Shown here in pieces: positions 4,621 through 63,423 of a stretch of DNA of 64,000 nt (positions within the stretch are counted from its first letter, which is position 1; every line of letters begins with the position of its first letter). Below the pieces are notes generated by a model. That model did no database searches. It had not been told where the DNA came from and saw only the letters and a program-made list of their open reading frames with translations. The position numbers and the translations under genes are program-made. This stretch comes from Clostridia bacterium (GTDB lineage: Bacteria; Bacillota; Clostridia; UBA1212; UBA1255). The stretch is from NCBI GenBank assembly GCA_017560225.1, contig JAFYOJ010000090.1, positions 1,386 to 65,385 on the forward strand, written 5' to 3'.

Positions 4621-6990
4621 TTATACCTCCCTATTATACCTTGATTTTGCGTAAAATGCAACGAAACAAAATGCAGAAATCCCGGCTAATACAATCCACA
4701 AGCAGCCATTGGGCGGAGCTTCTTCTCCCGTAGTAGGATTCACAGGAATTTTTCGGTTCACAAGAGGAGTTCCACCATAAATGGTACCGTTTTCAACCCG
4801 GTAAATAGTTTCATCCAACTGATATTCTTCCGCTGTTACAATTTCCTGCACATATAAATCAACGGGAAAATACGTAAATAGGCAAACCCGCCCACTTTGA
4901 TCAGGACTGGCTACACACAAAAGGTCACCGGGATTCACCGCAGTGCCATCCGGGGCGACGTAACTGTCATTGGCATATAACCCAAACCAGACTTCTTGAA
5001 ATCGGCTTGCGTCGCCGTCTTCTAACTTTTTGTCAAACATAACCGGGTACTTTTTCAAAACATTCTCCACCTCTACCACGCAAATTTCTTCCGGCAAAAT
5101 CGTGACCAAAAGAGGGGACAAATCGCAGGGTGCTTCATACCCTTGCGCCACCACACACTCCACCAATTGATAGACGCCCGGATATAACGTTCCGGACAAA
5201 TAACGACCTTCGCAGCAACGAATCTGTTCTACCCACGTTCCTGCCGGAATGCGCACTGTCCCATCCTCTCCGCAAATGTCCGCATAGGCATATACGTCGA
5301 AAGCACACCCCTCTAATTCCACGCGATCCAATGTAGGCTTTTTAAATCCGCAAATTTCTTCCACCGACACAATCCCCAGCCCGGTTTTTGAAATTTCAAA
5401 TTGCCCCCGAAGGGCTTTATTTTCAAGGAAAACATTTGTGGTTTCGCCCGCTTCAATTTGGCAGGTAACCGGATCACACAAGGCATATCCTTTTGTATGC
5501 TCGTTCGCAAGTTCCGTAACGGTGTACGTGCCAATGGGCAATTCTGAAAGGAGAATACCGCCTTGTTCATCGGTAACAACCGTTTCGCAATATACGGTTT
5601 CCGACCCATAAGTTCCCACAATTTCAAACGCAACACCTGCACGCGACGTCATACACCCCTCAAAAGTTTTGACAATGGATAACGCCCCGGTTTTCAACCG
5701 ATTTTGAAAAACTACTTGCGTAGTAGTACGGTCCTGTACTTCCACACGCTGAGAAGGGGGCTGCTGCCAAGGAGTTTCATCGGCTAAAAGTTCCGACACC
5801 TGATACCAACCGGCAGGAAGCCCCGTTAGAAGAGCACAACCATCGTCGTTGGTTTCTACCAACCGGAGAAATTCAACATTTTCGCCTCGAACTTCAAACG
5901 CATATCCGGAAAGTGCTCCAATTTCCACCTGTTTCCGAATTTGGATATCGCCAATTTCCACGTAATCTTCCGTTTGAAGTGCCATCACACCCACTTTCCC
6001 CGCCGCCTCTGACACCGTGGATTTGCAGGCAACCACCTGGGTAGCACCACTCCCGTCGGAGAAGAACAACATTTTCTTACCACCGTCCGGAAGTTCCTTA
6101 TGAATCTCTACGGCCAATAAATTTTCAATGGGCTGTACTGACTCAAAGCGATATCGATACTCTCCTAAATAGGAAACTTGCAACCAGGGAATCGTGTTGC
6201 CTTGTGTGTCTGACAGGGTAAAATGTGCTCCTGTACAATATTCATCCTGCAGTTCCAACACATACCGGCCATTTTTCTCATACTGTACCAACGTTTCTCC
6301 GGTTTGACGCAAATCGCCGGAGGGTTGCACAAAAGAAGGAAGTTGCAAATAGGTCTCCATTTGCGTAAGAATCCAATGATAACAACGTTCCGCAGGGCGG
6401 TCTTTGATCATATTATAATAAATATCGGCTTCAACTTGCCCATTGTTCTGTCTTGGGAAAACGCCCCGGCGAATCCCTTGTTGATACTCCCACACCAGCA
6501 CTTGCGTGGCTAGCCAATAGTCATCTTCATTGGTATCGGGCACAGGGGAAGCTTTTCCATCTTCATATCCAAATTGAAGCGTCAACCAAATTCCTTGCCG
6601 AGCCGCCTCCGGCAGCCGTTCGTAGTAGTCATTTGGCATTTCCAAATCTTCTTGCATATATTTGTCCCCACCGTAATAATAAGGAAGTCCGGTACCGATA
6701 CAATAGACAGAATGAATGGTGCCATCATAGCAAGCAATGCGTAATTTCTTTTGGATGTGACCACCCGCCGTATACTTGTATGAAGCCGTACCATCCTCCT
6801 CGTAGAGCAGAATCCAATAATCTTGATCCGCCGTATATTTCTCCCCATCGCTGCCAATGCAATCTACCATATTAGGATCCCATATTTCATTCCACGCCGG
6901 TTCTTGGGCGTAGACCATCCCATTCCCTACGATTCCACCAATCAACAAAATCACCATCTGCACAATACAAATTACTTTTTTCACAAACAT
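4621..6990 (-). CDS. Cell-wall-anchored adhesin with N-terminal thioester domain (TED), Cna-B/SpaA-like stalk repeats and C-terminal NPxTG sorting signal
   Basis: Signal peptide (MFVKKVICIVQMVILLIGG). TED signature WLATQVLVWEY (TQxxVW Gln motif) with upstream Cys candidates (SVYCIGTG, RIACYDG). Repeated about 100-aa beta-rich segments follow. C-terminus is VNPTTGEEAPPNG + hydrophobic helix + KSRYNREV, a cell-wall sorting signal of the class-B type NPxTG. Start set to ATG at M5; the track M1 is TTG. Confidence 0.7.
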   Translation of the reverse strand: MFVKKVICIVQMVILLIGGIVGNGMVYAQEPAWNEIWDPNMVDCIGSDGEKYTADQDYWILLYEEDGTASYKYTAGGHIQKKLRIACYDGTIHSVYCIGTGLPYYYGGDKYMQEDLEMPNDYYERLPEAARQGIWLTLQFGYEDGKASPVPDTNEDDYWLATQVLVWEYQQGIRRGVFPRQNNGQVEADIYYNMIKDRPAERCYHWILTQMETYLQLPSFVQPSGDLRQTGETLVQYEKNGRYVLELQDEYCTGAHFTLSDTQGNTIPWLQVSYLGEYRYRFESVQPIENLLAVEIHKELPDGGKKMLFFSDGSGATQVVACKSTVSEAAGKVGVMALQTEDYVEIGDIQIRKQVEIGALSGYAFEVRGENVEFLRLVETNDDGCALLTGLPAGWYQVSELLADETPWQQPPSQRVEVQDRTTTQVVFQNRLKTGALSIVKTFEGCMTSRAGVAFEIVGTYGSETVYCETVVTDEQGGILLSELPIGTYTVTELANEHTKGYALCDPVTCQIEAGETTNVFLENKALRGQFEISKTGLGIVSVEEICGFKKPTLDRVELEGCAFDVYAYADICGEDGTVRIPAGTWVEQIRCCEGRYLSGTLYPGVYQLVECVVAQGYEAPCDLSPLLVTILPEEICVVEVENVLKKYPVMFDKKLEDGDASRFQEVWFGLYANDSYVAPDGTAVNPGDLLCVASPDQSGRVCLFTYFPVDLYVQEIVTAEEYQLDETIYRVENGTIYGGTPLVNRKIPVNPTTGEEAPPNGCLWIVLAGISAFCFVAFYAKSRYNREV

Positions 6991-7619
6991 CCCCCTTCCC
7001 AATCCTTCTCAAAAACCAACAAAGCGGCATACAAAACCACTTCCATTTCCCCAAAACCTTTACAGTCTTGCACGATTTCCTCCAATACATCCGCCTGTAC
7101 CATCGGGTTGCTCCCCGCCGCATGCATCACTTTCTGCAAACAAGTCCGAATCGCCTTTCCGTGACGTCCCCGGGGACTTTGATATAACAGAAGTTGAATT
7201 TGTTCCAATCCCGTAAACTTATCACTCATCAAGGCCCCTTCTACGTGAAGCAATTCATCCGGCACCTTCCCAAACAGCCACGTATGGACCGGCAAGCTAC
7301 CCAGCGCCATCAACAGCTGACGAAGACAATGCCGTTCTTCTAAAAGATAGGGCATCATAAAAATCAAATTAACAAACATACGTATAACCGGTGCGTATTT
7401 AAAGGTGTTCCAAAGACGTTCTGCCGCTTCCGAAACTGCATCCGAATCGCCTTGTTGCAAAGCCTGTAACCACGGCAGCAAATAATACGCCGCTACCTTC
7501 GGCAGTCCCACGGAGCAACGAGTATATACCTCATTTGCAGAAGAGGCTCCGGCTAAACCATAGCAAAAAATACGGATGGTTTTAGGAATTTGCCGAACAA
7601 ACATAAAATGACGAATCAT
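6981..7619 (-). CDS. hypothetical protein
   Basis: 212-aa ORF with ATG start directly abutting the upstream stop (TAAATG). No recognizable motifs. Confidence 0.5.
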   Translation of the reverse strand: MIRHFMFVRQIPKTIRIFCYGLAGASSANEVYTRCSVGLPKVAAYYLLPWLQALQQGDSDAVSEAAERLWNTFKYAPVIRMFVNLIFMMPYLLEERHCLRQLLMALGSLPVHTWLFGKVPDELLHVEGALMSDKFTGLEQIQLLLYQSPRGRHGKAIRTCLQKVMHAAGSNPMVQADVLEEIVQDCKGFGEMEVVLYAALLVFEKDWEGGCL

Positions 7620-9200
7620 TTAACCGATCAAACGCTCAATGATTTTTTCATACTGCAGCGCATCTTCCCGACAGGCTTCTGCCGGCTGTACAGGAAGACG
7701 ATTTTTCTTGCGCGTTCTGCTTTCGCTGTGAGTCACTTCGCCTAAATACAGTTCTTTACCCACAATTTTTGCCAGTTGATCCCGTTTCGGGGACGCGCCT
7801 TCACAATAGTCCCAGGCCACAAAACGCACTTTAGAGAAAACCAAGCGCTTATTGTCCGCCAAGGACACATAATAATCCCGATAAGACTCCAAATCCTCCA
7901 CACTGGAAAGCGGCGTTGTAATCACGCAGCTGCAATAGCGCATAAAACAGTCCACAACAGCAGGATCATCCTGTCGCTCTGCCGTAAATAACACCAAATC
8001 AAAATTTCCGTGACACCAATCAAAAAACTGATCAAAATCCGACTCCGTACGCAACGGAAGCTCCAGCAGAAGTTTCCCCGACCCTACAAACAACTTGTCC
8101 GAGCAAGCGTGAAGCAAGCCCCGCTGCACCCACTGATTACTGGTACGCAAATACAAAGACTGATGATCAAAAATAAAAGGATAATAATCTTCACAAACCA
8201 ATTCGCTCAATTGATTTAAATTTAAAAAATAATATTCCAAATTGCGTTGCCCTTTTTCCGAAACTGCGAATACGCCGGTGCGAAGCCCTAACAAATCCGA
8301 TGCAACGTGGGCCATTTCACTGGCGAAACAAGCATTGCAGTCCACCATAACCGAATATTTCCGATAATTCCCCAGCACACGAACACCATCCTGTCGTTCT
8401 GCCCGCACCGTATCCAAGGACAATATTTTCTTATCTTTTCTCCTTTTTCTCCGGGCAACATCAATCAAAGCTTCTTTCAATTCGCCCACGTGACCATACC
8501 GGCCGGCGGGGTCCGGATGAATACACTTCATAATAATCTGCCCGCAAGGAAAATCCCCTTCCAGCGTCCCCGGATATTCCTCCTTCCCTGTAAGCATCGT
8601 GTATAAAATAACACCCAGAGAATAAATATCACAGGTTATATCCGGAGATCCGAAAATCACCTCCGGCGCCGTATAGTAACAGCTGCCTAATTTTCGCGTT
8701 GCAGAAACTGCGCCGGACGACTCCGATTCTTTCTCCAGCCGAATGGCCGCCTCGTAGTCCACCAACGTGATCCCGAAGATACCGGTTTCAACGTCCCCCC
8801 GAATCATAATATTGGCGGGTTTCAAATCCACAAAAGCAATAGCGCCCCGCTTATTCCAATGAAGAAAAGAAAGTGCGTCACATAGCGCCTTTAGAATCTC
8901 CACGCTTTGCTCAAAAGAAAGGGCACCCTCGCGACGAATCAAATCCGAAAGGGTTTCTCCCGGAATCCATTCTTCTGCTAAATACCGAACCCCATCTTCT
9001 TCAAAAGTACAAATAAATTTAGGCGTATACGGACTGTCAATTCCCGTCAACATCGCAATTTCATTGTTCGCCTGTTCATCTCCCCCACGCCAACATTTCA
9101 GAAAAACATCCTGTTTGCTACCGTCATCATAGGCGCGATACGTACGATGGGTACACAAAGTTTCCCGTACCGTAAAACGGTTCCAGATTTGCTCACACAT
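7620..9200 (-). CDS. Atypical Ser/Thr protein kinase-like domain fused to a C-terminal degenerate ParA/MinD-like domain
   Basis: Kinase subdomains are recognizable: VFLKCW (VAIK Lys), FVDLKPANIMI (HRDLKPxN with the catalytic Asp but no His-Arg), LVDYE (DFG position), YYTAPE (APE). The Gly-rich loop is absent. The C-terminal 300 aa has the ParA/MinD-type motif DLVLFTAERQDDPAVVDCFMRYCSCVITTPLSSVEDL without a Walker A. Start set to the first ATG (M38) with GGGGAGAG RBS; the track M1 is TTG. Confidence 0.6.
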   Translation of the reverse strand: MCEQIWNRFTVRETLCTHRTYRAYDDGSKQDVFLKCWRGGDEQANNEIAMLTGIDSPYTPKFICTFEEDGVRYLAEEWIPGETLSDLIRREGALSFEQSVEILKALCDALSFLHWNKRGAIAFVDLKPANIMIRGDVETGIFGITLVDYEAAIRLEKESESSGAVSATRKLGSCYYTAPEVIFGSPDITCDIYSLGVILYTMLTGKEEYPGTLEGDFPCGQIIMKCIHPDPAGRYGHVGELKEALIDVARRKRRKDKKILSLDTVRAERQDGVRVLGNYRKYSVMVDCNACFASEMAHVASDLLGLRTGVFAVSEKGQRNLEYYFLNLNQLSELVCEDYYPFIFDHQSLYLRTSNQWVQRGLLHACSDKLFVGSGKLLLELPLRTESDFDQFFDWCHGNFDLVLFTAERQDDPAVVDCFMRYCSCVITTPLSSVEDLESYRDYYVSLADNKRLVFSKVRFVAWDYCEGASPKRDQLAKIVGKELYLGEVTHSESRTRKKNRLPVQPAEACREDALQYEKIIERLIG

Positions 9201-9343
9201 ATAACTCTCCCCCAATAATTTTTTCTCCCTGATTTTCAGGGAAGCACATTGTAGCACTCCCCATTTTCCTTGTCCACGCGTCTTAGCATTATTTCCCAAA
9301 ATGTACAACAAATGAACTTTCGATCCGGCGGCAAAACAAGGAA

Positions 9344-11077: not shown

Positions 11078-11737
11078 TCACTGTTTCTTCATGGCTTTCT
11101 TACGTGCCTTTTCTTCTTGTCTGATCCGCTTGGGTTTTGGATAGAAAATGTTATGCAAGAATTTATTCTTAATATCCCACTTGATAATCCGTTTCCCGTG
11201 GAAACCCATATAGTAACCAAATGTAGAAAACACAATGATCAAGAGACCGGGAATCAAACAGTTCCAATAGGATACAGACGGAATGGGACAAAGTTCCCCT
11301 ACCGGTCCTTCAATCAAGCGGAAAAACCAGTAAAAGGGCATGCACAACGCCAGACGCACATAAGCGTTCAATACTTCAATCACAAATTTAGGGTGGGACA
11401 CAATTACGTATTCATTGGCTACCCCAATCATCACGTATTCAAGCAGCATAATAATTACATACGCAATGGCGCCACAAACCAAGCCTTTCCAAGGATAACG
11501 CACCCATTTATAGGGTTTCCGGTCATCCTCGCCAAAGCCATGCATAATACAATACGTTATGATACAAAAAACAATAGTAGAGAAAAGGGTATAGCTACTA
11601 AACCAAAAGTCCGGTGTCATATACCCGCTCAGCACAATGACAATTAAAGGGAATGCAGCCCAAGCCAGTACTACGGTTAAGACATAGCACAGCAGAACAT
11701 TTCTGATTCCCTTTAAATGTGTCTTGAAATTCTCCAC
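11078..11737 (-). CDS. hypothetical polytopic membrane protein
   Basis: GTG start with perfect AAGGAG RBS (6-nt spacer). Five or six predicted TM helices. Lys-rich C-terminus. Confidence 0.5.
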   Translation of the reverse strand: MENFKTHLKGIRNVLLCYVLTVVLAWAAFPLIVIVLSGYMTPDFWFSSYTLFSTIVFCIITYCIMHGFGEDDRKPYKWVRYPWKGLVCGAIAYVIIMLLEYVMIGVANEYVIVSHPKFVIEVLNAYVRLALCMPFYWFFRLIEGPVGELCPIPSVSYWNCLIPGLLIIVFSTFGYYMGFHGKRIIKWDIKNKFLHNIFYPKPKRIRQEEKARKKAMKKQ

Positions 11738-11747
11738 AAATAACTCC

Positions 11748-14420
11748 TTAAATCTGCGCCTTCAAAGCAACTACGCGAACGCTGTCGCTGATTGTCAGGT
11801 TGGACAAGTCCTCACCAAAGGCAATCAAGAGTTCCACGTCGCCCTTTGCAAGCATATCGGCCTCTTTTGCAGAAATCGCGCCAATGCCGCGAACTGCCAC
11901 ACCGTTTTGGTTGAAGCCTACTGCTAAATCTTCCCCTTCTGCCGCTTTCTTATTCCGAACAGCCGCATAAGTTGCACTGGCCTTCTGACGTCCTTCTTCA
12001 ATCACTTTGTTCAAAGAATTGGAAGCCACGAAAGCAACGTCTTGAGCAATCGCCAGAATCGCATCTACTTGTTGATTGGAACAAGTGGTACCTACCAAGA
12101 TCGCAACCTTAGAAGCATCCATAGACGCCATTGCCTCTTTTGCTGCAGCAACTTGATCCGTTACCGCGATCAACTTAGGCATTTCGAAACGTCCGCGAAC
12201 GCAAAGTACGTCTTGACCCTTACCCTTCTTGGGAAGTACACGGGTTACGCGGCTACCGCAAGAAGCAACCTGAACGTCACAACCTGCCTGACACATCACG
12301 CACTTGGCATCCTTCACAGTTTCCTTCACAGGAACTTGCTTATCCAAAGCAGAAATTTCCACCAAGGCACCGGTAGGACATACGCTTACGCAAAGTCCGC
12401 AGCCCAAACACTCAGTTTGAGACAAAGGCATACCCATCTCAGGCTGTACAATGGTATCAAAACCACGGCCCACAAGACCGAGAATGGTCTTGCCTGTAAT
12501 TTCTTCACAAGTACGGGCACACAGTCCGCAAAGTACACACTTATCAACATCGCGTACAAAGTACTTGCCGGCCGTCTTCATCTGTCTGTCGTGACGGTAA
12601 CCGCCAAAGCGATCCGGATCAATATCATACCGATTTGCGTAGTTGATCAACTTACACTCGAAGTAGTCCATACAGCCGCACTCTAAGCAACGTGCTGCTT
12701 CCTGCTGTGCTTCTTCCCGCGTAAAGCCGTGCATATATTCCTTAAAGTTGTTCTTACGCGCTTCCGCATGGGTATGTGCCATCTGTACTCTGTCAGAAGG
12801 TTCTTCCTTACGGTGCGCATACAATTCCTTCACTTGATCATCAGAAAGTTTCCGTTTGGAGTAGAATGCCGCCTTAGGCGCCTCTACTTTACCGGTACGC
12901 AAGTACTGATCCACTGCTTTCGCCGCTTTCTGGGCTTCGCCGATGGCTGCAACTGCAATGCCGGGGCCCTTGTTGGTGTCGTCACCGCAAGCAAAAACGC
13001 CGGGAACGGAAGTTGCAAAGGTTTGCTCGTCTGCAACGAACGTATTCTTTCTGGTGAGTTCCAAACCGTCGATGCCGGCAGGATTTACACCCTGACCGAT
13101 GGCCATAATAACCGTATCTACGGGGATAATCTCGAAAGCACCTTCAACAGGTACAGGGCTGCGACGGCCGGATGCATCGGGCTCGCCCAATTCCATCTTC
13201 TGCACTTTAACAGATACAACTTTGCCATTCTCATCGCCTATAATCTCAACAGGATTACAAAGGAACTTAAATACAACGCCTTCTTCCTCAGCCTCGCAAA
13301 TTTCAATATCTTCTGCAGGCATTTCAGCGCGGGTTCTTCTGTACAAAGTATAAACGTCTTTCGCACCTACGCGAACAGCGGTACGGCAAGCGTCCATAGC
13401 CGTGTTACCACCGCCGCAAATTGCAACGCTGTTTCCGATTGCCGGTGCGTTCCCAAGAGCAACGTCTCTCAAGAAATCGATACCGCCCAACACACCCTTC
13501 AAATCTTCTCCGGGTACGCGCATCTTACTGCTGGTCCATGCACCGATTGCAACGATCACCGCATCATTCTCTTTGCGAATGGTCTCAAAAGCAATGTCCT
13601 TGCCGATTTGAACACCGGTCTTGGCCTTTACGCCAAGGGCTTCAATCACGGCAATTTCCTGATCCAATACAGCCTTGGGAAGACGGTACTCAGGAATACC
13701 ATAACGAAGCATACCGCCCATCTTCGGCATCTGCTCGTAAATGGTTACGTCGTGACCCATGCCGGCAAGTTGTGTCGCTGCGGTCAAACCTGCAGGACCA
13801 CCACCGATAATAGCAACTTTCTTACCGGTAGAGCTAACCGGCTTTTGATAAACCTTGGCAGCTTCTTCCAAGCCAAGTGCCAAGTTCTTATCGGCAACGT
13901 AACGCTTTAAGAATGCAATAGAAACAGATTCATCCAACTGACCTCTGCGGCACTGCTTCTCACAAGGATGGGGACATACACGACCGATAGATGCAGGAAG
14001 AGGAATCTTCTCCATTACCAAACGAACCGCTTCTGCGTCCATACCATTTGCGATCATACCTACGTAACCTTGACAATCGGTTTCAGCAGGACACGCCAAC
14101 ATACAAGGCGGACGACAGTCGCCGGTGTGGTCTGTCATAAGCAATTCCAAAGCCACCTTGCGGGCCTGAATAACACGGGGAGTCTCGGTGTAATACTCCA
14201 TTCCTTCTGTACGCTCATTGACTTCCGTAGAGCAAGAACGAAGCAGTTTGCCACCGCCCTTCGCTTCAATCACACACATACCGCAAGCGCCATAGGACTT
14301 CACCTTAGGATCGTGACAAAGGGTAGGAATGTCAATACCAAAGCGAGCCGCTACGTCGGAAATCATCTCGCCGGCTTCTGCATAAACCGGAATATCGTTA
14401 ATCTTAAAATTTATACTCAT
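11748..14420 (-). CDS. Multi-FeS / GltD-like NAD(P)H flavoprotein fusion subunit of a NuoEF-type bifurcating oxidoreductase (StnC/HydA-N-terminal-like, no H-cluster)
   Basis: Domain order: 2Fe-2S ferredoxin (CHDPKVKSYGACGMC) -> His-ligated 4Fe-4S (HTGDCRPPCMLACP) -> GltD-like FAD/NAD(P)-binding (VAIIGGGPAGLTAA; AICGGGNTAMD) -> two 4Fe-4S ferredoxin motifs (CVLCGLCARTCEE; CLGCGLCVSVCP) -> truncated molybdopterin-type 4Fe-4S (CVMCQAGCDV...C). No TSCCPxW, MPCxxK or ExMACxxGCxxG hydrogenase motifs. Start set to M6 (GGAGG RBS). Confidence 0.7.
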   Translation of the reverse strand: MSINFKINDIPVYAEAGEMISDVAARFGIDIPTLCHDPKVKSYGACGMCVIEAKGGGKLLRSCSTEVNERTEGMEYYTETPRVIQARKVALELLMTDHTGDCRPPCMLACPAETDCQGYVGMIANGMDAEAVRLVMEKIPLPASIGRVCPHPCEKQCRRGQLDESVSIAFLKRYVADKNLALGLEEAAKVYQKPVSSTGKKVAIIGGGPAGLTAATQLAGMGHDVTIYEQMPKMGGMLRYGIPEYRLPKAVLDQEIAVIEALGVKAKTGVQIGKDIAFETIRKENDAVIVAIGAWTSSKMRVPGEDLKGVLGGIDFLRDVALGNAPAIGNSVAICGGGNTAMDACRTAVRVGAKDVYTLYRRTRAEMPAEDIEICEAEEEGVVFKFLCNPVEIIGDENGKVVSVKVQKMELGEPDASGRRSPVPVEGAFEIIPVDTVIMAIGQGVNPAGIDGLELTRKNTFVADEQTFATSVPGVFACGDDTNKGPGIAVAAIGEAQKAAKAVDQYLRTGKVEAPKAAFYSKRKLSDDQVKELYAHRKEEPSDRVQMAHTHAEARKNNFKEYMHGFTREEAQQEAARCLECGCMDYFECKLINYANRYDIDPDRFGGYRHDRQMKTAGKYFVRDVDKCVLCGLCARTCEEITGKTILGLVGRGFDTIVQPEMGMPLSQTECLGCGLCVSVCPTGALVEISALDKQVPVKETVKDAKCVMCQAGCDVQVASCGSRVTRVLPKKGKGQDVLCVRGRFEMPKLIAVTDQVAAAKEAMASMDASKVAILVGTTCSNQQVDAILAIAQDVAFVASNSLNKVIEEGRQKASATYAAVRNKKAAEGEDLAVGFNQNGVAVRGIGAISAKEADMLAKGDVELLIAFGEDLSNLTISDSVRVVALKAQI

Positions 14421-14434
14421 TGTCCTTACCTCCA

Positions 14435-16198
14435 TTAGTCCTTGACGATTGCACCGAACTTACAACTTTCGAAGCACTTACCGCACTTGATACACTTGTC
14501 TGCATCGATCACGTGAGCTTCTTTCACTTTGCCTGCGATAGCATCTACCGGACACTGGCGAGCGCAAAGGGTACAACCCTTACACTTATCCGCGTCGATG
14601 GTAAAATGAATCAAAGTCTTACAGTTGCCGGCAGGACATTTCTTATCCCGAATATGAGCTTCGTACTCATGACGGAAATAACGAATGGTAGTAAGTACAG
14701 GGTTCGGTGCCGTCTGGCCCAAACCACAAAGGGCACCATCCTTCACCGTAGTACAAAGTTCTTCCAAATTCTCAATGTCGCCTTCACGGCCTTCACCCTC
14801 CACGATACGAGTTAAGATTTCGTGAAGACGCTTAGTACCCAAACGGCAGTGTACACACTTACCGCAAGATTCCTTGGTGGTGAAATCCAAGAAGAAACGA
14901 GCCATATCCACCATACAAGTACTCTCGTCCATAACAACCATACCGCCGGAACCCATGATAGCACCGGTAGCACCCAGTTTCTTATAGTCAATCACCGTAT
15001 CCAGCAAGTCTGCAGGAATACAACCGCCGGAAGGACCGCCCATCTGAACGGCTTTGAATTCTGCATCATTCTTAATACCGCCGCCGATATCAAAGATAAC
15101 GTCGCGCAAAGTCTTACCCATAGGGATCTCCACAAGGCCTCCCTTGCGAATCTTACCGGTCAAAGCAAATACCTTGGTACCCTTGCTGTCTTCGGTACCC
15201 ATTGCAGCAAATGCTTCGCCGCCATGGAGCAAAATCCATGCAACGTTGGCAAAGGTTTCTACGTTGTTAATGTTAGAAGGCTTCTGCCAGTAACCCTTCT
15301 GTGCCGGGAACGGAGGCTTCAAACGAGGCATACCGCGCTGGCCTTCTAAGGATTCGATCAATGCTGTTTCCTCACCGCATACGAATGCACCGGCACCGGC
15401 TTTGATTCTCATCTTACAAGAAAAACCTGTGCCCAAAATGTTCTCACCCAAGAAACCGGCTTTCTCTGCCTGCTCAATAGCCTTGGTCAAACGAACAATA
15501 GCCAAAGGATACTCTGCGCGTACGTATACGACTGCTTCGGATGCACCGATGGCGTAGGCGCCGATCAACATACCCTCAATCAAATTATGAGGATCACTTT
15601 CGATAACCGCACGGTCCATAAATGCACCCGGGTCGCCCTCGTCCGCATTACAAATCAAATACTTCTGCTCGCCGGGAGAGCTCTTAGCCGCATTCCACTT
15701 AAACCAAGTGGGGAAACCTGCACCGCCACGGCCTGCCAGACCGGAAGTCTTAATCACTTCGATAACGTCGTCCGGCGTCATGGTCTTCAGTACTTTGGTC
15801 AAAGCCTGATAACCGTCAGCCGCCATATATTCTTCAATGCTCTCCGGATTGATATTACCGCAATGGCGAAGGGCAATTCGAGTTTGCTTTCTTAAATAGT
15901 CCTTGTCTTCCTCTGCAATTTCATAAGCTTTCAGTGCATCTGCATCTAAATTGCCGGATGCCACAGCTTCAGCTAACGCAAGAGCAAATTTCTCGTCCGC
16001 TTTGCAATAGGTACGACGTGCATCACCTTCGTAAACATCTACGATAGGCTCTAAATAACACATACCAATACAGCCGGTAATGGAAAGTGTAACTTCGGGA
16101 TTGCCGGATACTTTCTCGTTCAAAACATCATATACTTTGCCGGCACCGGCAGCAATACCACAGCTACCTTGTCCTACTTTAATTAAAAACTTACTCAT
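14435..16198 (-). CDS. NuoF/HydB-like NAD(P)H-binding flavoprotein subunit (FMN, 4Fe-4S) with N-terminal thioredoxin-like 2Fe-2S and C-terminal 2x[4Fe-4S]
   Basis: GAGAFVCGEETALIESLEG (FMN/NADH site), the SxGGxCxxC-type cluster motif region (ESCGKCVHCR), and C-terminal CKGCTLCARQCP / CIKCGKCFESC. ATGA overlap with the upstream NuoE-like gene. Confidence 0.85.
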   Translation of the reverse strand: MSKFLIKVGQGSCGIAAGAGKVYDVLNEKVSGNPEVTLSITGCIGMCYLEPIVDVYEGDARRTYCKADEKFALALAEAVASGNLDADALKAYEIAEEDKDYLRKQTRIALRHCGNINPESIEEYMAADGYQALTKVLKTMTPDDVIEVIKTSGLAGRGGAGFPTWFKWNAAKSSPGEQKYLICNADEGDPGAFMDRAVIESDPHNLIEGMLIGAYAIGASEAVVYVRAEYPLAIVRLTKAIEQAEKAGFLGENILGTGFSCKMRIKAGAGAFVCGEETALIESLEGQRGMPRLKPPFPAQKGYWQKPSNINNVETFANVAWILLHGGEAFAAMGTEDSKGTKVFALTGKIRKGGLVEIPMGKTLRDVIFDIGGGIKNDAEFKAVQMGGPSGGCIPADLLDTVIDYKKLGATGAIMGSGGMVVMDESTCMVDMARFFLDFTTKESCGKCVHCRLGTKRLHEILTRIVEGEGREGDIENLEELCTTVKDGALCGLGQTAPNPVLTTIRYFRHEYEAHIRDKKCPAGNCKTLIHFTIDADKCKGCTLCARQCPVDAIAGKVKEAHVIDADKCIKCGKCFESCKFGAIVKD

Positions 16199-16695
16199 GC
16201 CTGCTTCCCTCTCAATTCCCGGATAATCTCTTTCGCTTTAGAAGGAGTAAGAGAACCGTATGTTTCGTCATTGATCATCATAACAGGAGACAAACTGCAG
16301 CAGCCAAGGCAAGCTACCGTCTTCAAAGAGAACAAGCCGTCATCGGTGGTGTCGCCGTCTTTAATGCCTAACTCTTCTTCCAATGCCGCCTCTACCAACT
16401 TAGCCCCATTTACGTGACAAGCGGTACCCTGGCAAAGCAAAATCAAGTACTTACCAACGGGTTTAAAACGGAACTGGGTGTAGAAAGTCGCAACGCCCAA
16501 TACCTTTGCCGGTTTGATACCGGTCTTCTCCGCTACGTGCCACAAAACATCTGTGGGCAAATAACCGTATATATCCTGTGCATGTTGCAAAATCGTAATT
16601 AAACTGCCCGGTACACTTGCGTACTTAGCAAGTACCGGTTCCAACAAAGTAAGATCACTCTTACTACCGCATGTACAACAAAATTCTTTCTCCAT
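16195..16695 (-). CDS. NuoE/HydC-like 2Fe-2S thioredoxin-fold subunit
   Basis: 166 aa with CQGTACHVNG ... CLGCCSLSP cysteine pattern typical of the 24-kDa NuoE family. Confidence 0.85.
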   Translation of the reverse strand: MEKEFCCTCGSKSDLTLLEPVLAKYASVPGSLITILQHAQDIYGYLPTDVLWHVAEKTGIKPAKVLGVATFYTQFRFKPVGKYLILLCQGTACHVNGAKLVEAALEEELGIKDGDTTDDGLFSLKTVACLGCCSLSPVMMINDETYGSLTPSKAKEIIRELRGKQA

Positions 16696-16743
16696 ACTTT
16701 CGCTTCTTTCTATAAAAAATCTATTCCAATCAAATTGTAATCA

Positions 16744-18351
16744 TTATTCCCCGGAAGGTTCCTGAGAAGATTCTTCGGTAGGCTCATCAGAAGGCTCCTG
16801 GGAAGGTTGTTCCGTAGGTTCATCAGAAGGCTCTTGGGTAGGCTCTTCCGTAGGCGCATCAGAAGGCTCCTGGGAAGGTTCTTCCGTAGGTTCTCCGGAA
16901 GGCTCCTGAGAAGGTTCTTCTGTAGGTTCTTCAGAAGGTTCTTCGGAAGGTTCCTGGGAAGGAATGTCAGAAGGCTCTTCTGTCGGTGTTCCGGAAGGTG
17001 TCGCCGTAGGTTGTGTAGACGGCGGCGGTGACCATACCGGTTTAAGCGTAGGCGTTTGTGTAGGCTCCGAGGTGCTCGCATCTACGGTTTCTGATGCTGC
17101 AGGAATCGACGGAAGTGCCTGTTCGCCATCATTGGGCGTACTCAAATACTTATAACCAAGCACAATAAACAGAATAACAATAATCAAGCAAAGGGCGAAC
17201 ACAATCACTGCCGGCCAGATTTGCGCATCGGGAGAATCCGAATCTAATCCCAAGAAATTCTTTACCTTCGCCATAAAACCGGAGCTCTGCTTAGCCGTGC
17301 GGCGAGAAGAAACACGTCTGCGAACCGGCGCTACCGGCGCTACAGGATCCGCTTTCTCTTCGTCCATCACAAACAAAGAGGTCTTGGAAACAGGACGACT
17401 CGATGCAACACGGTCTTCCTGCGTACTCTCTTCCGTTCTCCAAGTATTGGGACGGGTATGAACATCTGCAGAAGCCATGGTAACGCCTGAAATGCTTGCA
17501 GGATCCACAACCGATTTGGGTGTATCCATCGCTGTCAGTACAACCAAAGTCGTATCTTCTTGAAAACCGGTTTCCGATACTTCTGCCATCAACTTATCAA
17601 TAATGTCAGCAGCAGTTTGGTTTTTCGAAAGAATTGCCTGAATATCTTCCGCAGTAATACTTTCACAAAAGGCATGGCTGCAAATCAAGAATACGTCACC
17701 TGCTTCTGCCGTCATTTCAAAAACAGCAGGATTCAACGGAGACGAGTCACTATGGATGCCCATATACTGCGTCAATTTGTGTCTTTTCGGATGGGCTGCC
17801 GCACGCTCTGCAGGAATCATGCCCGCATCCACCATCTTCTGGGCTTGCGTATGATCTTCAGAAATTTGCTGCAGCAATCCATTTCTAAAATGATAAATTC
17901 TGGTATTGCCCAAATTGGCGGTAACTACCCGCTTCCCTTTCACACAAATCATGGCAAGGGTCGCACGCAATTGGTCGTCCCCTAAATTAGATGCCTTTGC
18001 CTTAATCGTGTTATTTGCGGATTGGATATAGGTATTTACAAAACCCACCATATCCATACCTGCGGTAGATTTCCCTGCCTCTCGGGCTGCTGCAAGTTCC
18101 TGCAATTTCTTGCCATGGAACTTAAACAGGGTCTTCATAGCAGACAATGAAGCTTCTTCACTGTACGTATCTGCACCAAAGCCCTCACTAATGGCATATA
18201 ACTGAAGTCCTTTCTGATCTTTCTTCTGTGTCAGCAGGACTTGGGAGGAACAAAATTCCTCGGTTATGTATTTGGAATTTAAGTAGAAATTGTTGCTATT
18301 GTAGCTTTTCTTCTTGCCCGGACAAGTCGCCGCGGCTGCCCTATAAATCAT
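16744..18351 (-). CDS. Membrane-anchored PP2C-like (PPM) domain protein with a C-terminal Pro/Glu/Ser/Thr-rich tandem-repeat tail
   Basis: N-terminal about 270 aa aligns to bacterial PP2C (PrpC/Stp1): [25 protein letters not shown]. Several metal-binding positions are substituted (DGxGG -> EGFGA, GDSR -> GNTR, CSDG -> CSHA). A single TM helix ([23 protein letters not shown]) follows. The C-terminus is about six copies of [12 protein letters not shown]. Confidence 0.65.
16747..17010 (-). repeat. Roughly 36-nt in-frame tandem repeat (about 6-7 copies) encoding [12 protein letters not shown]-type units
   Basis: Visible nucleotide periodicity (ggttcttc[a/c]g[a/t]aggctcctg[g/a]gaa...) at the 3' end of the PP2C-like gene. 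Confidence 0.7.
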
Positions 18352-53960: not shown

Positions 53961-54275
53961 TTACTCTGTTTCTGCCACGATACTTTCAATCGTTTCAAAG
54001 GTAGGCAACTTTCCCTCTTCCCCATATAAAAGATATTCTGCAGAAACTTCCAAGGCTACCGCCAAATATTTAAGTTCAATATCTGAAACTTGCCGTGTAC
54101 CCTTTTCAATGCGACACACCGTTACACGTTCAAAATTTTCTAATCCCTTTAATTGTAATTTTGCTGCCAAATCCGCTTGGGTCATACGCACACGATGGCG
54201 TTTTCCATAGTTCTTGCGGGCAAGACGGACATTCTCCCCACAGGCATTTTGGCGTCTGATTGGTAACTTCTTCAA
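53961..54275 (-). CDS. XRE-family HTH transcriptional regulator
   Basis: GENVRLARKNYGKRHRVRMTQADLAAKLQLKGLENFERVTVCRIEKGTRQVSDIELKYLAVALEVS matches HTH_XRE. Start placed at TTG with AGAGAGGTG RBS; the track ATG at 54320 lacks an RBS. Confidence 0.5.
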   Translation of the reverse strand: MKKLPIRRQNACGENVRLARKNYGKRHRVRMTQADLAAKLQLKGLENFERVTVCRIEKGTRQVSDIELKYLAVALEVSAEYLLYGEEGKLPTFETIESIVAETE

Positions 54276-55922: not shown

Positions 55923-56023
55923 AAAGATTCCCCACTTTCTGTTCGGTTTATTTTACAACCCGTGAGATAAAAATACAATACTGTGTATAAAAAAAGTTAT
56001 AAACTCAACACAATGCCCTTGCG

Positions 56024-57187
56024 TTACAAACCCAACTCGTCTAATAACGCTTGCATCTCATCTGCTTTTTCCCGGGAAACATTATGATTGTACAACAATT
56101 CTCTCATAGACCTTTTGGCATGACCACAAAACACTAATTTAAACCACCGTCGAACCTGCATAACCGGTGTGAGCCACTTGTGTTTTTGAAGAATTGGATA
56201 ATGCCGCTTAATTAAATCATACGGAATCACAATTTTTGAAAAAGCGTATTGCAAACGCCCACCTAACTTTTGTTGGCGGAGAACAATTCTATTTTGCAGC
56301 GTTCCGTAAACACCTCCGGAAAGAATAAAGTATTCCATCTTTTTCGTGCAGGCATTACCGGGCTGATTATCAAACCACATTTCGCCAAGAAGTGTTGCAT
56401 TTCTGGCAAATTTACCCACCCCACCTTTTTCAAGGAGTTCCTCATACTTATCTAAATCCTTTTCAGGAAGATGATTCAATATCCACAAATCTAATACCGA
56501 GCGAATACCACAACCGCCGTTTCGAAAATGCTTCGACATATGAACAACATGATAAAAATAGAACAAATCAGCCGGCATTTCCATTTGATATAACCATCCC
56601 GGACGAGCAGTTGCCACATCCCAAAGATTATCAAAAATCCCTGCTATTTTTCCGGTATAATCATCTTCTATAAGGAGAAAGTGCAATTCAATGTGATAGC
56701 CGTTTTGTGAATACAGAGCCACGTCGTGTAAACATCGTGAGCGTTCAACAAATTGCAACTCACCAACTAAAATGGAAACAGCATTTTCCAAATCTTCAAC
56801 TTTCACTAATATGTCAAGATCGCTACAAGTTCGCATCCACGGTTCCGGATAATAGTTTTGCATCACAGCACCTTTTAACGGAATAAATGAAATTTTTGCC
56901 TTTTCAAAGGCATTACAAATACGCACCCGTTCATACTGTTGATTTTCATGTCGATATATGGCCCGAAAAATATACTTTTGCAGCCGAGATTTGCTTTCAT
57001 CATTTACCAAACCATTTTTTATTGCGCCTAACGCTACCAAGTGTGCCAGATCGTGTTTTTCTGCCAAGCGAATAATGTTTGAAAGCAAGTTTTCAGATGC
57101 AATTTGCTTGCTTTCGCTATTCATCGGTTTATTTTGAATAACTGATTGAAGAATTGAAAAAAATATATCTCGCTCTTTCTCGTTCAT
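56024..57187 (-). CDS. Uncharacterized nucleotidyltransferase (NTP_transf_5-like)
   Basis: About 390 aa with the DLDILV nucleotidyltransferase Asp motif, a family common in polysaccharide loci. Start at ATG M24 (AAAGGAAG RBS). First gene of the AT-rich island. Confidence 0.55.
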   Translation of the reverse strand: MNEKERDIFFSILQSVIQNKPMNSESKQIASENLLSNIIRLAEKHDLAHLVALGAIKNGLVNDESKSRLQKYIFRAIYRHENQQYERVRICNAFEKAKISFIPLKGAVMQNYYPEPWMRTCSDLDILVKVEDLENAVSILVGELQFVERSRCLHDVALYSQNGYHIELHFLLIEDDYTGKIAGIFDNLWDVATARPGWLYQMEMPADLFYFYHVVHMSKHFRNGGCGIRSVLDLWILNHLPEKDLDKYEELLEKGGVGKFARNATLLGEMWFDNQPGNACTKKMEYFILSGGVYGTLQNRIVLRQQKLGGRLQYAFSKIVIPYDLIKRHYPILQKHKWLTPVMQVRRWFKLVFCGHAKRSMRELLYNHNVSREKADEMQALLDELGL

Positions 57188-57240
57188 AGTAATGAACTTC
57201 CTTTCAACAATACATTCACGCGCAATCCGTATGGTAAATT

Positions 57241-58347
57241 CTACTGTTCCAAACAACGCATAAAGTTTTCTTTATTTTCTTTGGCAGTTGTAGTAGGTCT
57301 TCCCAAATCAGCTCTAGCGCCAATAGCACATTTAATTTCTATCAACGTAAGATTATTTTTGTTTTTTGCTTGCCAAAGCGCTTTATCCAGTTCGTCAAAA
57401 TTATCTACAGAAACAACGTTAGAATAGCCGCAACCTTTTGCAATAGCACAAATATCAATTTTGGATGCCACCGTAGGCATTCCGCCAACCGTTTCATGGG
57501 CGCCGTTGTTGATAACAATGTGTACTATGTTTTCAGGAGCCATTGATCCTAATAGAGCAACTGAACCCATATGCATTAACAACGCTCCGTCACCATCAAT
57601 ACACCAAATCTTTTTTTGGGGATTTTGCAATGCAATGGATAGCGCAATAGAGGAACTATGTCCCATAGAACCCACGGTAAGAAAATCATACTGATGGCCT
57701 TGACCATTGATCTCCCGAATTTCAAACAATTCTCGCGATGCTTTTCCCGTGGTAGATATAACAGGATCTGTATCCGACACGGCAACAATGTGTCGAATAA
57801 TCTCCTCACGAAGCATTTTATTGTCATTATTATACGAAACTTTCAAATCACATTCTAATGCGCCTTTCTTAACAACAAAAGCAACCTGTTTCCCCGATTC
57901 CAATAAAGGCTTCCATTGTTCAAGTTGCATAACAACTTCACTTTCGGTTGTTTCCTTACTGATAACAAAAGTACGAATATCCATATCTTCCAAAAGTTTT
58001 ATCGTAACTTCTCCCTGATAAATGTGTTGCGGTTCATCATGAACACCCGGTTCACCTCTCCAGCCAACAAAAAAGATACAAGGAATCCCGTACACTTTAT
58101 CATTCATAAGGGAAGCAACGGGATTAATAATATTGCCAATACCGCTATTTTGCATATAAACCACCGGAATCTTTCCTGTAGACAAATAATAACCTGCCGC
58201 AAGCGCTACGCAATTTCCTTCATTGGCTGCAATAATATGTTGTTTGCCAATACCGTAAGTAGCCATCAAATAGTTGCATAACGGTTTCAGTTGAGAATCC
58301 GGCACGCCTGTAAAAAAATCATAATTCTTTAAAAAATCTAATTTCAT
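57241..58347 (-). CDS. ppd: Phosphonopyruvate decarboxylase (TPP-dependent)
   Basis: Fused alpha/beta TPP-enzyme of about 370 aa with ThDP motif CIDGDGALLMHMGS...N. Sits immediately downstream of a PEP mutase gene. Confidence 0.8.
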   Translation of the reverse strand: MKLDFLKNYDFFTGVPDSQLKPLCNYLMATYGIGKQHIIAANEGNCVALAAGYYLSTGKIPVVYMQNSGIGNIINPVASLMNDKVYGIPCIFFVGWRGEPGVHDEPQHIYQGEVTIKLLEDMDIRTFVISKETTESEVVMQLEQWKPLLESGKQVAFVVKKGALECDLKVSYNNDNKMLREEIIRHIVAVSDTDPVISTTGKASRELFEIREINGQGHQYDFLTVGSMGHSSSIALSIALQNPQKKIWCIDGDGALLMHMGSVALLGSMAPENIVHIVINNGAHETVGGMPTVASKIDICAIAKGCGYSNVVSVDNFDELDKALWQAKNKNNLTLIEIKCAIGARADLGRPTTTAKENKENFMRCLEQ

Positions 58348-58348
58348 T

Positions 58349-59464
58349 TCATTTCACGTCCAATTTTAAAATTAATATATATAAATCATATAAATTTTGT
58401 GTTTCAAGTTTAACAGGATTATTATTCAATCGTGTAAGGTTAACAGATGCAGACAAAACAGGTAAGTCATCCACATGTGCTTTGCACGGAGCTTCCAAAC
58501 CTATTTCGTTGAGTAAATCCGAAAATTTGCAAACCGCCTCATCCACATTTTCACACCCTAATGACTTAGCAATCGCTTCAAAGGTGCTTGCCAAATAAGA
58601 TTTTCCTCTGCGGTCGATACACAAATCCAGATTTTGATGCATATACGCCCATATATAAGGCAAACAAATTGCAACTGCATGACCATGCGGAAGCCCATAC
58701 AGTGACGTGATTTTATAGCTCATAGCATGCGCTGATGTCGTTTGTGTAATATTAATCGCCTGTCCTGCATAGTTGGCGGCCAAAAATATTTCGGTTGTTG
58801 CATGGTCATCGTTTTTAAAAAGATAGGCCTTGTAATTCTTCATAATTGTTTCAACGGCTTTTTGGGAAAGCTTTTTACTTGTTTCCGTAGAATTAACCGA
58901 CCACCATGACTCAATCCCCTGACAAAGAGCATCCATTAACGTACACGTTTTTTGGTAAAATGGAAGTGTTTTTAACACACTAGGCTCAAGAATAGCATAC
59001 TCCGGTATCAAACTTTGGTGGGTAACAGACTGCTTTTCACCGTTATAATAAATAACTGCATATCTTGTTGATTCGCTTCCTGTACCCGCTGTTGTAGGAA
59101 TTGCAATCAGTGGAATCCCTGTATCTTTATATTCCTGTTGCAAAAAGTTGGTTGTTTCATCCATTTTGCAATACAGCTTGATGCATTTCGCAACGTCAAT
59201 ACTACTTCCGCCACCAACCGCCAAAAGCGTATCACATCCTTCAGCATTGAACAAATGCACCCCTTTTGCTACATCTGCATATTGAGGATTCGGTGTAAAG
59301 TCATCAAAAAAAACAATTGGAATTTGAATGTTGTCAATTTGTTCTTTAATGGGTAAGAACTGATAAGAACAGCTGCAAACAATCATAACCTTTCTTGCCC
59401 GCACCGTATTCAAAATATGTTTAAGTTGTTGTATACTCCCGTTTCCTGCAATAACTTTTTGCAT
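58349..59464 (-). CDS. Iron-containing (group III) alcohol dehydrogenase; predicted phosphonoacetaldehyde reductase
   Basis: GGGSSIDVAKCI NAD/Fe-ADH motif and His-rich metal site (HAMSY...HGHAVA). AAGGAG RBS. Function inferred from its position between pepM and ppd. Confidence 0.65.
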   Translation of the reverse strand: MQKVIAGNGSIQQLKHILNTVRARKVMIVCSCSYQFLPIKEQIDNIQIPIVFFDDFTPNPQYADVAKGVHLFNAEGCDTLLAVGGGSSIDVAKCIKLYCKMDETTNFLQQEYKDTGIPLIAIPTTAGTGSESTRYAVIYYNGEKQSVTHQSLIPEYAILEPSVLKTLPFYQKTCTLMDALCQGIESWWSVNSTETSKKLSQKAVETIMKNYKAYLFKNDDHATTEIFLAANYAGQAINITQTTSAHAMSYKITSLYGLPHGHAVAICLPYIWAYMHQNLDLCIDRRGKSYLASTFEAIAKSLGCENVDEAVCKFSDLLNEIGLEAPCKAHVDDLPVLSASVNLTRLNNNPVKLETQNLYDLYILILKLDVK

Positions 59465-59477
59465 AGCGGTACGCTCC

Positions 59478-61487: not shown

Positions 61488-61489
61488 AA

Positions 61490-62248
61490 TTATACATTTC
61501 CTTTCTTTTCATTTGATTGATCTTTACGAATATAATTGTTTTTCCTCGGGGTCATATAATCTCCATAGAGCGACGTAAGAAACATATCATATTCTGCTAT
61601 ACATTGATATTGTTGGTCTTCAAAAGGAAGTTCAACCGTTTTCTGCATCATAGTTTTAGGATAAGCATCATAATACGGAGGTGCAAACACTGTTACGTAT
61701 TCAGAATCACTCCAACCATATTGTGTCGAATATGTACGATATACTTTGTTCGTATATGTATCCGGAACAAATATTGCAAACATCTTTGTAAAAAATAACA
61801 ATATCGGTTTCTTAGTAGCGTGAAAAGGTTTGTATTTAGCAGAGAAGAATTGATATAATCTGCGAGTCTTTTTCAAAAAGCGTATACGTTCTTGTGCATC
61901 ATTCGGTGCGCCAATTAAACCATAGATATCAATATGACAATCATAGTGTGACTGACCTTCAAGAATCAAGCGTTCATGACACGAGCCAAAACCTTTTTCA
62001 ACACCGGGAACGCAAAGATGATAATGACTCTTTTTGTCACAACGAATGGCATTTCGTAATTTCAGCAAATCGTCGTGCCGCACAAAAATATCGACATCTA
62101 AGTCCCAAGGGATAAAGCCTTTTTCTCGTACCGCACCCAAAAGAGTTCCATACGCAAGAGAATACCAAATATCGTTCTCTTTGCATACGCGGTGTAGATA
62201 ATTCAGCATTTGTAACAAGTCATCTTTTTGATCATTTTGGGCTATCAT
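61490..62248 (-). CDS. licD: LicD-family phospho-head-group transferase
   Basis: YSLAYGTLLGAVREKGFIPWDLDVDIFV is the LicD family signature. Start at ATG M26 (AAAAGAGGA RBS). Confidence 0.8.
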   Translation of the reverse strand: MIAQNDQKDDLLQMLNYLHRVCKENDIWYSLAYGTLLGAVREKGFIPWDLDVDIFVRHDDLLKLRNAIRCDKKSHYHLCVPGVEKGFGSCHERLILEGQSHYDCHIDIYGLIGAPNDAQERIRFLKKTRRLYQFFSAKYKPFHATKKPILLFFTKMFAIFVPDTYTNKVYRTYSTQYGWSDSEYVTVFAPPYYDAYPKTMMQKTVELPFEDQQYQCIAEYDMFLTSLYGDYMTPRKNNYIRKDQSNEKKGNV

Positions 62249-62268
62249 GCAAATCCTCTTTTCTGTTT

Positions 62269-63396: not shown

Positions 63397-63423
63397 AGTC
63401 AACCTCTAATGTCCAAAGTAATG

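Follow-up and report, generated by a model that had tools for sequence, protein, structure and literature searches.

A Clostridia operon predicted to encode a Stn/NfnABC-type electron-bifurcating transhydrogenase with a shortened large subunit

We analysed a stretch of 64,000 nucleotides of contig JAFYOJ010000090.1 from a Clostridia bacterium (assembly GCA_017560225.1), referred to here as the window, and in particular an operon of three tightly packed, co-directional open reading frames (ORFs) on its minus strand, which encode a NuoE-like protein, a NuoF-like protein and a fusion protein of 890 amino acids. We found that this operon very probably encodes an electron-bifurcating transhydrogenase of the Stn/NfnABC type (Nfn-Bfu, type 1 of the Bfu family). 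Every defining feature of the Nfn-Bfu/Stn family that can be tested in sequence is present, and catalytic activity is predicted. Apart from a shortened, probably non-catalytic tail on the large subunit, the locus is an ordinary member of a characterised family, whose enzymes keep NADH, NADPH and ferredoxin in balance in anaerobes. The three genes are as follows.

16195..16695, minus strand: stnA/nfnC, NuoE-like subunit, 166 amino acids (Pfam 2Fe-2S_thioredx, E 6e-52; PDB 9bov_C, 3.5e-63, and 8oh5_A, 4e-57).
14435..16198, minus strand: stnB/nfnB, NuoF-like bifurcating-core subunit (the B subunit), 587 amino acids (Pfam Complex1_51K, NADH_4Fe-4S and Fer4).
11748..14420, minus strand: stnC/nfnA, large subunit, 890 amino acids (PDB 9bov_A, 1.9e-251; 8oh5_C, 1.9e-213; 9n5u_A, 4e-165).

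The subunits match the solved Stn/NfnABC complexes

The family was described in 2020 (PMC7483475) and classified in 2022 as BfuB clade 53 (Schut 2022, PMC9304861), and between 2023 and 2025 its structure was solved three times and its mechanism defined (PMC10482914, PMC11829005, PMC12018979). Enzyme activity has been shown for Sporomusa ovata (PMC7483475) and Thermococcus sibiricus (PMC9304861). For the S. ovata enzyme the electron path, the lysine cluster ligand and the non-bifurcating flavin adenine dinucleotide (FAD) have also been established (PMC10482914). With three cryo-electron microscopy structures and a defined mechanism available, the locus is less novel than was supposed in an earlier note made from the letters of the window, which had proposed an operon of NuoE, NuoF and a NuoG/HydA plus GltD fusion of the Stn type. 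That proposal is borne out by our searches: all subunits match StnABC/NfnABC best, and the family residues are conserved.

When the PDB was searched by sequence, the top matches of all three subunits were NfnABC of Caldicellulosiruptor saccharolyticus (9bov), StnABC of S. ovata (8oh5) and NfnABC of T. sibiricus (9n5u). The E-values against solved family members were 1e-251, 1e-265 and 1e-63, far beyond chance. For every subunit these complexes ranked above the [FeFe] and [NiFe] bifurcating hydrogenases and complex I. Using the ranking of bit scores in place of a phylogeny, we found that the B subunit scored 883 bits against StnB (8oh5_B), 849 against C. saccharolyticus NfnB (9bov_B) and 771 against T. 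sibiricus NfnB (9n5u_B), compared with 728 for the [NiFe]-HydB and 725, 680 and 605 for [FeFe]-HydB proteins. Identities counted from the alignments were 67% to StnB and 63% to C. saccharolyticus NfnB for the B subunit and, over about 750 residues, 53% to C. saccharolyticus NfnA (9bov) and 48% to StnC (8oh5) for the large subunit.

Each of the three solved enzymes is informative in its own way. S. ovata StnABC (8oh5/8oh9; Kremp 2020, PMC7483475; Kumar 2023, PMC10482914) has the same three subunits, and its StnC, to which the 48% identity extends over residues 3-747, contains seven cluster-binding sites that are shared with the large subunit here. Likewise, StnB carries a Zn hinge and a C-terminal ferredoxin domain as in our B subunit. 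However, the S. ovata genes lie beside metVF of the Wood-Ljungdahl pathway, whereas the operon described here lies among cell-envelope and housekeeping genes. C. saccharolyticus NfnABC (9bov/9bp5; Li 2025, PMC11829005) is the best overall match for the large and NuoE-like subunits and comes from a non-acetogenic fermentative Firmicute, resembling the probable source here. That enzyme is a tetramer of heterotrimers with an NfnA of 1178 amino acids, in contrast to the 890 found here. The T. sibiricus Nfn-BfuABC (9n5u/9n5v; Schut 2022, PMC9304861; Xiao 2025, PMC12018979) is archaeal and of lower identity (554 bits); it has a naturally shortened large subunit and is active as a single heterotrimer. 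The tail of our protein is about 55 amino acids shorter still.

The canonical NfnAB/NfnSL enzymes of T. maritima and P. furiosus (4ylf, 5jca) catalyse the same overall reaction, and the GltD-like module of our protein has a homologue in their large subunit (E 1e-94 to 1e-97). Their architecture is nevertheless unrelated: they have two subunits, bifurcate at the FAD itself, ligate the proximal cluster with a glutamate and lack a NuoEF-type core. In the operon described here no NfnS-like gene adjoins, and the ligand position is occupied by lysine rather than glutamate.

The cofactor ligands of the family are conserved

The large subunit is an iron-sulfur (FeS) array of the NuoG/HydA type into which a GltD-type FAD/NADPH domain is inserted. 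The order of its Pfam domains is Fer2_4, then Fer4_20 with Pyr_redox_2 (GltD/NfnL type), then two [4Fe-4S] clusters, then a weak Molybdop_Fe4S4, and we divided it into the following segments.

14130..14420, minus strand: residues 1-97, HydA/NuoG-type N-terminal [2Fe-2S] domain with C35, C46, C49 and C63 (Pfam Fer2_4 and motif).
12696..14129, minus strand: residues 98-575, inserted GltD/NfnL-like module (Pfam Fer4_20 and Pyr_redox_2).
12351..12695, minus strand: residues 576-690, second half of a split NuoG-type motif and a 2x[4Fe-4S] ferredoxin-like domain (Pfam Fer4_21, Fer4_Nqo3).
12186..12350, minus strand: residues 691-745, Fdh/NuoG-type [4Fe-4S] module, complete with C707, C710, C714 and C740 (weak Pfam Molybdop_Fe4S4).
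11751..12185, minus strand: residues 746-890, compact alpha/beta tail, apparent remnant of an FdhF/NuoG-like domain, with no catalytic-domain signature (AlphaFold (AF2) model, fold match).

The GltD/NfnL-like module contains two [4Fe-4S] sites, one formed by C102, C106, C110 and C116 and the other by C149, C153 and C157 together with K172. Its FAD fold is marked by GGGPAG at 206 and by R239, and its NADPH fold by GGGNTAMD at 336 and YRRT at 360. We found that K172, R239 and C116 align with K170, R239 and C114 of S. ovata StnC, in which mutagenesis showed K170, an unusual cluster ligand, to be essential (PMC10482914). The lysine at the FAD-proximal cluster is said to be conserved in all NfnABC enzymes (PMC12018979), and it was kept in every sequence that we inspected (78 related loci; 8 sequences per length class).

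The full FeS array of NuoG and HydA had been credited to this protein in the earlier note. The full cluster set is indeed present, but the His-ligated motif HxxxCxxCx5C is not contiguous. The GltD insertion splits it into H98xxxC102xxxC106xxxC110P, in which H98 is a putative ligand, and C578xxC581xC583x5C589, and the same split of the His motif by the GltD insertion is found in StnC (Kremp et al. 2020, PMC7483475). Downstream of the second half are the ferredoxin-like clusters C628-C638 and C671-C681; the N-terminal part of the NCBIfam model FeFe_hydrog_A6 matches this segment. Thus the family-defining FeS chain of the large subunit is complete, comprising the N-terminal [2Fe-2S], HxxxCxxxCxxxCP, CxxCxCx5C and the ferredoxin-type clusters. 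The T. sibiricus NfnA is without the cysteines of one ferredoxin-type cluster, whereas our protein retains C671-C681. The molybdopterin-type [4Fe-4S] had been described as truncated. We found the module itself to be intact, with its four cysteines, and to align with 9bov_A and 8oh5_C; it is the domain after the module that is cut to about 150 amino acids. In solved homologues this Fdh-type cluster lies off the electron path (PMC10482914, PMC12018979).

The B subunit begins with a thioredoxin-like domain (C13, C43, C47) whose cysteine pattern is identical in all three solved NfnB/StnB proteins. The B5 site holds Zn in C. saccharolyticus and was modelled as [2Fe-2S] in S. ovata, and the cysteine pattern, which is the same in all three, fits either here. 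The motifs for flavin mononucleotide (FMN) and NAD(H), GRGGAGF and NADEGDPG, are present, as are the ligands of the B1 [4Fe-4S] (C445, C448, C451, C491) and a Zn-hinge site (C428, H515, C521, C526), made up of three cysteines and the histidine that is conserved in Bfu B subunits. Two CxxCxxCxxxC motifs (C539-C549 and C569-C579) make up the C-terminal 2x[4Fe-4S] ferredoxin domain. In the NuoE-like subunit, the ligands of the thioredoxin-like [2Fe-2S] are C88, C93, C129 and C133.

We also observed that the NuoE-like subunit starts with a cysteine-rich tag, MEKEFCCTCGSK, encoded by its first 9 codons (16669-16695, minus strand) and containing C6, C7 and C9. The PDB alignments do not reach this stretch. 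Of 73 related C-subunit genes, 59 encode comparable tags, with 2-4 cysteines before the first helical motif (for example MCNCN, MNCCCN and MGCCNC); most loci with a large subunit of about 735 amino acids have none. More Zn was reported than modelled in the C. saccharolyticus study (PMC11829005). The tag could be an undescribed extra metal site.

Predicted electron path

The mechanism that we propose is carried over from the solved homologues, and its support in this operon is the conservation of residues. In the large subunit, the GltD-like module would bind NADP(H) and react with it at its non-bifurcating FAD. One electron at a time would then move to the Lys-ligated [4Fe-4S] and the second GltD cluster, next to the split NuoG-type cluster and one ferredoxin-type cluster, and finally through the N-terminal [2Fe-2S] into the B subunit. 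At the bifurcation site, the flavobicluster (PMC11829005, PMC12018979), the FMN would act with the B1 [4Fe-4S] and the NuoE-type [2Fe-2S] to split or merge electron pairs. One branch would serve NAD(H) at the FMN of the B subunit and the other ferredoxin at its C-terminal 2x[4Fe-4S] domain, with gating expected from movement of the thioredoxin domain of the NuoE-like subunit. The physiological direction is likely to be from NADH and reduced ferredoxin to NADPH for biosynthesis, in what is a fermentative, spore-forming Clostridia genome.

Other roles for the same scaffold

Homologous subunits can serve other enzymes, and we weighed three such roles against a Stn/NfnABC-type transhydrogenase. 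The first is a non-bifurcating or differently specialised NADPH oxidoreductase on the same scaffold, for example an NADPH-dependent sulfur/polysulfide reductase or a simple NAD(P)H:ferredoxin oxidoreductase. The homologous NsoABCD of T. litoralis was first reported as an NADPH-dependent sulfur/polysulfide reductase and has a partial C-terminal domain, as does our protein (PMC7483475, PMC10482914). Activity with artificial acceptors fits such a role as well, since two such dyes, methyl and benzyl viologen, accept electrons from NADPH through the S. ovata enzyme (PMC7483475) and benzyl viologen was used to assay the T. sibiricus Nfn-Bfu (PMC9304861). However, the T. sibiricus enzyme, which is closely Nso-like, proved to be a tightly coupled Nfn (PMC9304861), and we found no sulfur-metabolism genes near the operon. 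We consider this role improbable.

The second possibility is that the operon supplies an NAD(P)H electron-input module for a hydrogenase or formate dehydrogenase whose catalytic subunit is encoded elsewhere, as a split locus of the Hnd, Hyt or Fdh-Bfu kind. In its favour, the subunits share homology with HydBC/HndAC and with the N-terminus of HydA. In Bfu hydrogenases and formate dehydrogenases, however, the catalytic domain is fused to or adjoins the A subunit, and the A subunit here carries a complete NADPH-oxidising GltD module, that is, a third substrate site. The B subunit, moreover, is closest to StnB/NfnB and not to HydB.

Searches for a catalytic partner covered the 64-kilobase window. 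The H-cluster motifs TSCCPxW, MPCxxKxxE and ExMACxxGCxxG, which had been predicted to be absent, were not found in its six frames, nor did they appear after alignment. The expectation that there is no Mo-bisPGD catalytic domain also held: PF00384 was unmatched in the window. Within the large subunit neither PF00384 nor PF01568 was matched, and a Pfam search with just the tail, at E<=10, gave the Fe4S4 module and nothing else. The NCBIfam FeFe_hydrog models matched the N-terminal FeS part only, far under their cutoffs. No hydA or fdhA, which together with H-cluster motifs after realignment had been named beforehand as what would overturn the assignment, adjoins the operon or lies elsewhere in the window, and no other ORF in it has the size or family of an FdhA; the other ORFs of at least 600 amino acids encode an adhesin, a polynucleotide phosphorylase (PNPase) and a phosphoenolpyruvate (PEP) mutase fusion. 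Among 80 related loci none had all three H-cluster motifs together; in the window and in these loci, only isolated single-motif chance matches were seen. It is therefore very unlikely that the operon feeds a hydrogenase or formate dehydrogenase.

Least likely of all, and in our view hardly credible, is a small-subunit paralogue related to glutamate synthase or dihydropyrimidine dehydrogenase that passes electrons from NADPH to an amidotransferase or synthase partner encoded elsewhere: no NCBIfam model reached its cutoff for the large subunit, and although the best match was PRK12814, 'putative NADPH-dependent glutamate synthase small subunit', its 629 bits lie under the cutoff of 916, there is no gltB-like gene in the window, the FAD-proximal cluster has the Stn-type lysine ligand, and NuoG-type clusters are part of the same protein, whose gene shares an operon with NuoEF homologues in 80 of 80 loci where the contig extends far enough upstream.

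The large subunit has a shortened tail

The feature that sets the predicted transhydrogenase apart is the C-terminal end of its large subunit, where only about 150 amino acids follow the Fdh-type cluster. In S. ovata StnC (1172 amino acids) and C. saccharolyticus NfnA (1178 amino acids) this position is occupied by a catalytically dead FdhF-like domain of about 430-490 amino acids that mediates tetramer formation (PMC10482914, PMC11829005). T. sibiricus NfnA (963 amino acids) has a partial domain and is active as a lone heterotrimer (PMC12018979). The full FdhF/NuoG-like C-terminal domain is thus absent from our protein, which does not argue against membership, since the active T. sibiricus enzyme is also without it (PMC12018979).

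We modelled residues 690-890 with AF2 using 30 homologues and obtained a pLDDT (predicted local distance difference test) of 94.4. The best fold match of the tail model was T. sibiricus NfnA (TMq 0.51-0.54), followed by NuoG/Nqo3. A hidden Markov model of the tail matched the long-form domain in two separate places, at about 757-810 and again at about 982-1033, with weak E-values of about 1e-5 in a small database. This suggests that the tail arose by an internal deletion together with loss of the C-terminal part. In a rough neighbour-joining tree of the shared region of about 700 residues, the window protein fell in a coherent clade of forms of about 890-960 amino acids. Tentatively, and with somewhat less than even confidence, we propose from these sequence and model comparisons that the protein belongs to a distinct clade of Stn/Nfn large subunits (about 890-960 amino acids) in which the FdhF-like remnant is apparently one small alpha/beta module, the two halves of a single subdomain having been joined after an internal deletion.

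Shortening is not confined to this clade. The large subunits of 78 species loci fell into length classes of about 675 amino acids (28 loci), about 735 (11), 917-1003 (5) and more than 1050 (34), and the rough tree indicates that tails were shortened independently in several clades. The forms of about 675 amino acids, from related gut and rumen Clostridia, are found among loci L030-L078, and those of about 735 amino acids are at loci L007, L017, L022, L024, L036, L042, L045, L049, L061, L068 and L080. In these short forms, which many Ruminococcus and Oscillospiraceae metagenome-assembled genomes (MAGs) encode, the subunit stops right after the second ferredoxin-type cluster (...CPTGALKLL, then stop). 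They are without the Fdh-type cluster and the tail, and there is no Fdh-like gene downstream of them. Short homologues (for example of 898 and 955 amino acids) are already present in Table 1 of Kremp et al. (PMC7483475).

The cluster-binding sites of the bacterial enzymes are all kept, but because the tail of about 150 amino acids is shorter even than in the single-heterotrimer T. sibiricus enzyme, we infer that the complex is a lone heterotrimer and not a tetramer as in S. ovata and C. saccharolyticus. Two observations weigh against the assignment to an active transhydrogenase: the tail is unlike that of all three characterised enzymes, and no active complex was obtained when the FdhF-like domain was deleted by engineering in S. 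ovata (PMC10482914), so that assembly might in principle suffer from a shortened tail. On the other hand, the tail is confidently folded in the AF2 model and is conserved across the clade. If natural minimal forms are indeed active lone heterotrimers, the FdhF-like domain and the off-path clusters would be dispensable for bifurcation, in contrast to the failed deletion in S. ovata, and these forms would be the smallest natural Nfn-Bfu scaffolds.

Gene starts and genomic neighbourhood

Read from the first ATG, the three ORFs run from 16695 to 16195 (166 amino acids), 16198 to 14435 (587 amino acids) and 14435 to 11748 (895 amino acids). All three genes had been described in the earlier note as translationally coupled. 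The ATGA overlap of the NuoE-like and NuoF-like genes at 16198-16195 is present in the sequence, and so is the TAATG overlap between the NuoF-like gene and the large-subunit ORF at 14437-14433. For the large subunit, however, a second ATG at 14420, 15 nucleotides downstream of 14435, is preceded by a GGAGG Shine-Dalgarno sequence at a spacing of 8 nucleotides and agrees with where the solved homologues begin. In L081, a syntenic relative, the called start of the large subunit likewise lies 15 nucleotides past the stop of the B gene, the same as ATG 14420. The start is therefore likely to be ATG 14420, with ATG 14435 (895 amino acids) as the alternative, and it yields the 890 amino acids that had been given for this protein. 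It follows that the large subunit is probably not translationally overlapped with the B gene.

Scans for promoters and terminators gave sites that were no commoner than in shuffled sequence, none of them convincing at the ends of the operon. No site for the redox repressor Rex (TTGTKAAN4TTMACAA, <=2 mismatches) was found near the operon; the sole match, at 54260, is at chance level. An Rfam scan of the whole window gave no matches.

The neighbours of the operon are unrelated housekeeping genes. The promoter-proximal flank encodes a PP2C-like phosphatase, DUF218, FtsW/RodA, Lgt, M16 peptidases, RibF and Rho, and the distal flank a membrane protein of 219 amino acids, a protein of 278 amino acids without families, an amidase, a Ser/Thr kinase and a thioester-domain adhesin. 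The 219-residue multi-pass membrane protein (11078-11737, minus strand) has a GTG start 10 nucleotides past the large-subunit stop and its own AAGGAG ribosome-binding site. We considered it as a fourth subunit and rejected it: it has no Pfam family and was found only in the syntenic loci L001 (51% identity) and L081 and not in the other 79 loci. Its confinement to two syntenic relatives marks it as a neighbour specific to this lineage rather than a subunit.

Several other features of the window were recorded. The PP2C-like phosphatase (16744-18351, minus strand) ends 48 nucleotides upstream of the operon and has a long tail of Pro/Thr/Glu/Ser-rich repeats (Pfam PT repeat), which yields a spurious overlapping ORF of 123 amino acids at 16710-17081. 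The Ser/Thr kinase (7620-9311) lies a few genes downstream. The surface protein of 793 amino acids (4621-7002, minus strand) combines a thioester domain (TED) with SpaA/prealbumin-like domains, as in covalent adhesins, and is also present in the syntenic L081. The region 56000-64000 has a GC content of 38-39%, compared with 45-50% elsewhere, and encodes at 59478-61487 a fusion of 669 amino acids of nucleotidyltransferase, cytidylyltransferase and PEP mutase, together with an uncharacterised nucleotidyltransferase. This suggests a cluster for a phosphonate-decorated surface glycan, possibly horizontally acquired.

Related loci and their annotation

Homologues of the operon are numerous. More than 8000 matches fell below 1e-20, and 288 loci were confirmed among GTDB species genomes. 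The three-gene unit stands alone in the 80 related loci from GTDB species genomes, and the order NuoE, NuoF, large subunit was found in 80 of 80 wherever the contig extends far enough upstream. The nearest GTDB species genome is a rumen Clostridia MAG at 65% identity, and identity rises to 83% with a syntenic contig of an NCBI MAG (GCA_965350485.1).

In the 8oh5 entry, chains bear the depositors' names 'formate dehydrogenase-O major subunit' and 'NAD-reducing hydrogenase HoxF', and homologues at NCBI are called 'FAD-dependent oxidoreductase', consistent with the remark in the earlier note that these loci are routinely mis-annotated. More generally, loci of this type receive the names 'FAD-dependent oxidoreductase', 'glutamate synthase small subunit', 'NuoF' or 'formate dehydrogenase', whereas what they probably do is link the pools of NADH, NADPH and ferredoxin. 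The chief value of the assignment lies in annotation and metabolic modelling, and it opens no new question; the series of naturally truncated tails could serve as a guide when minimal bifurcating enzymes are designed. Since gut and rumen Clostridia very commonly carry homologues, recognising these alters the predictions of redox balance for many uncultured fermenters.

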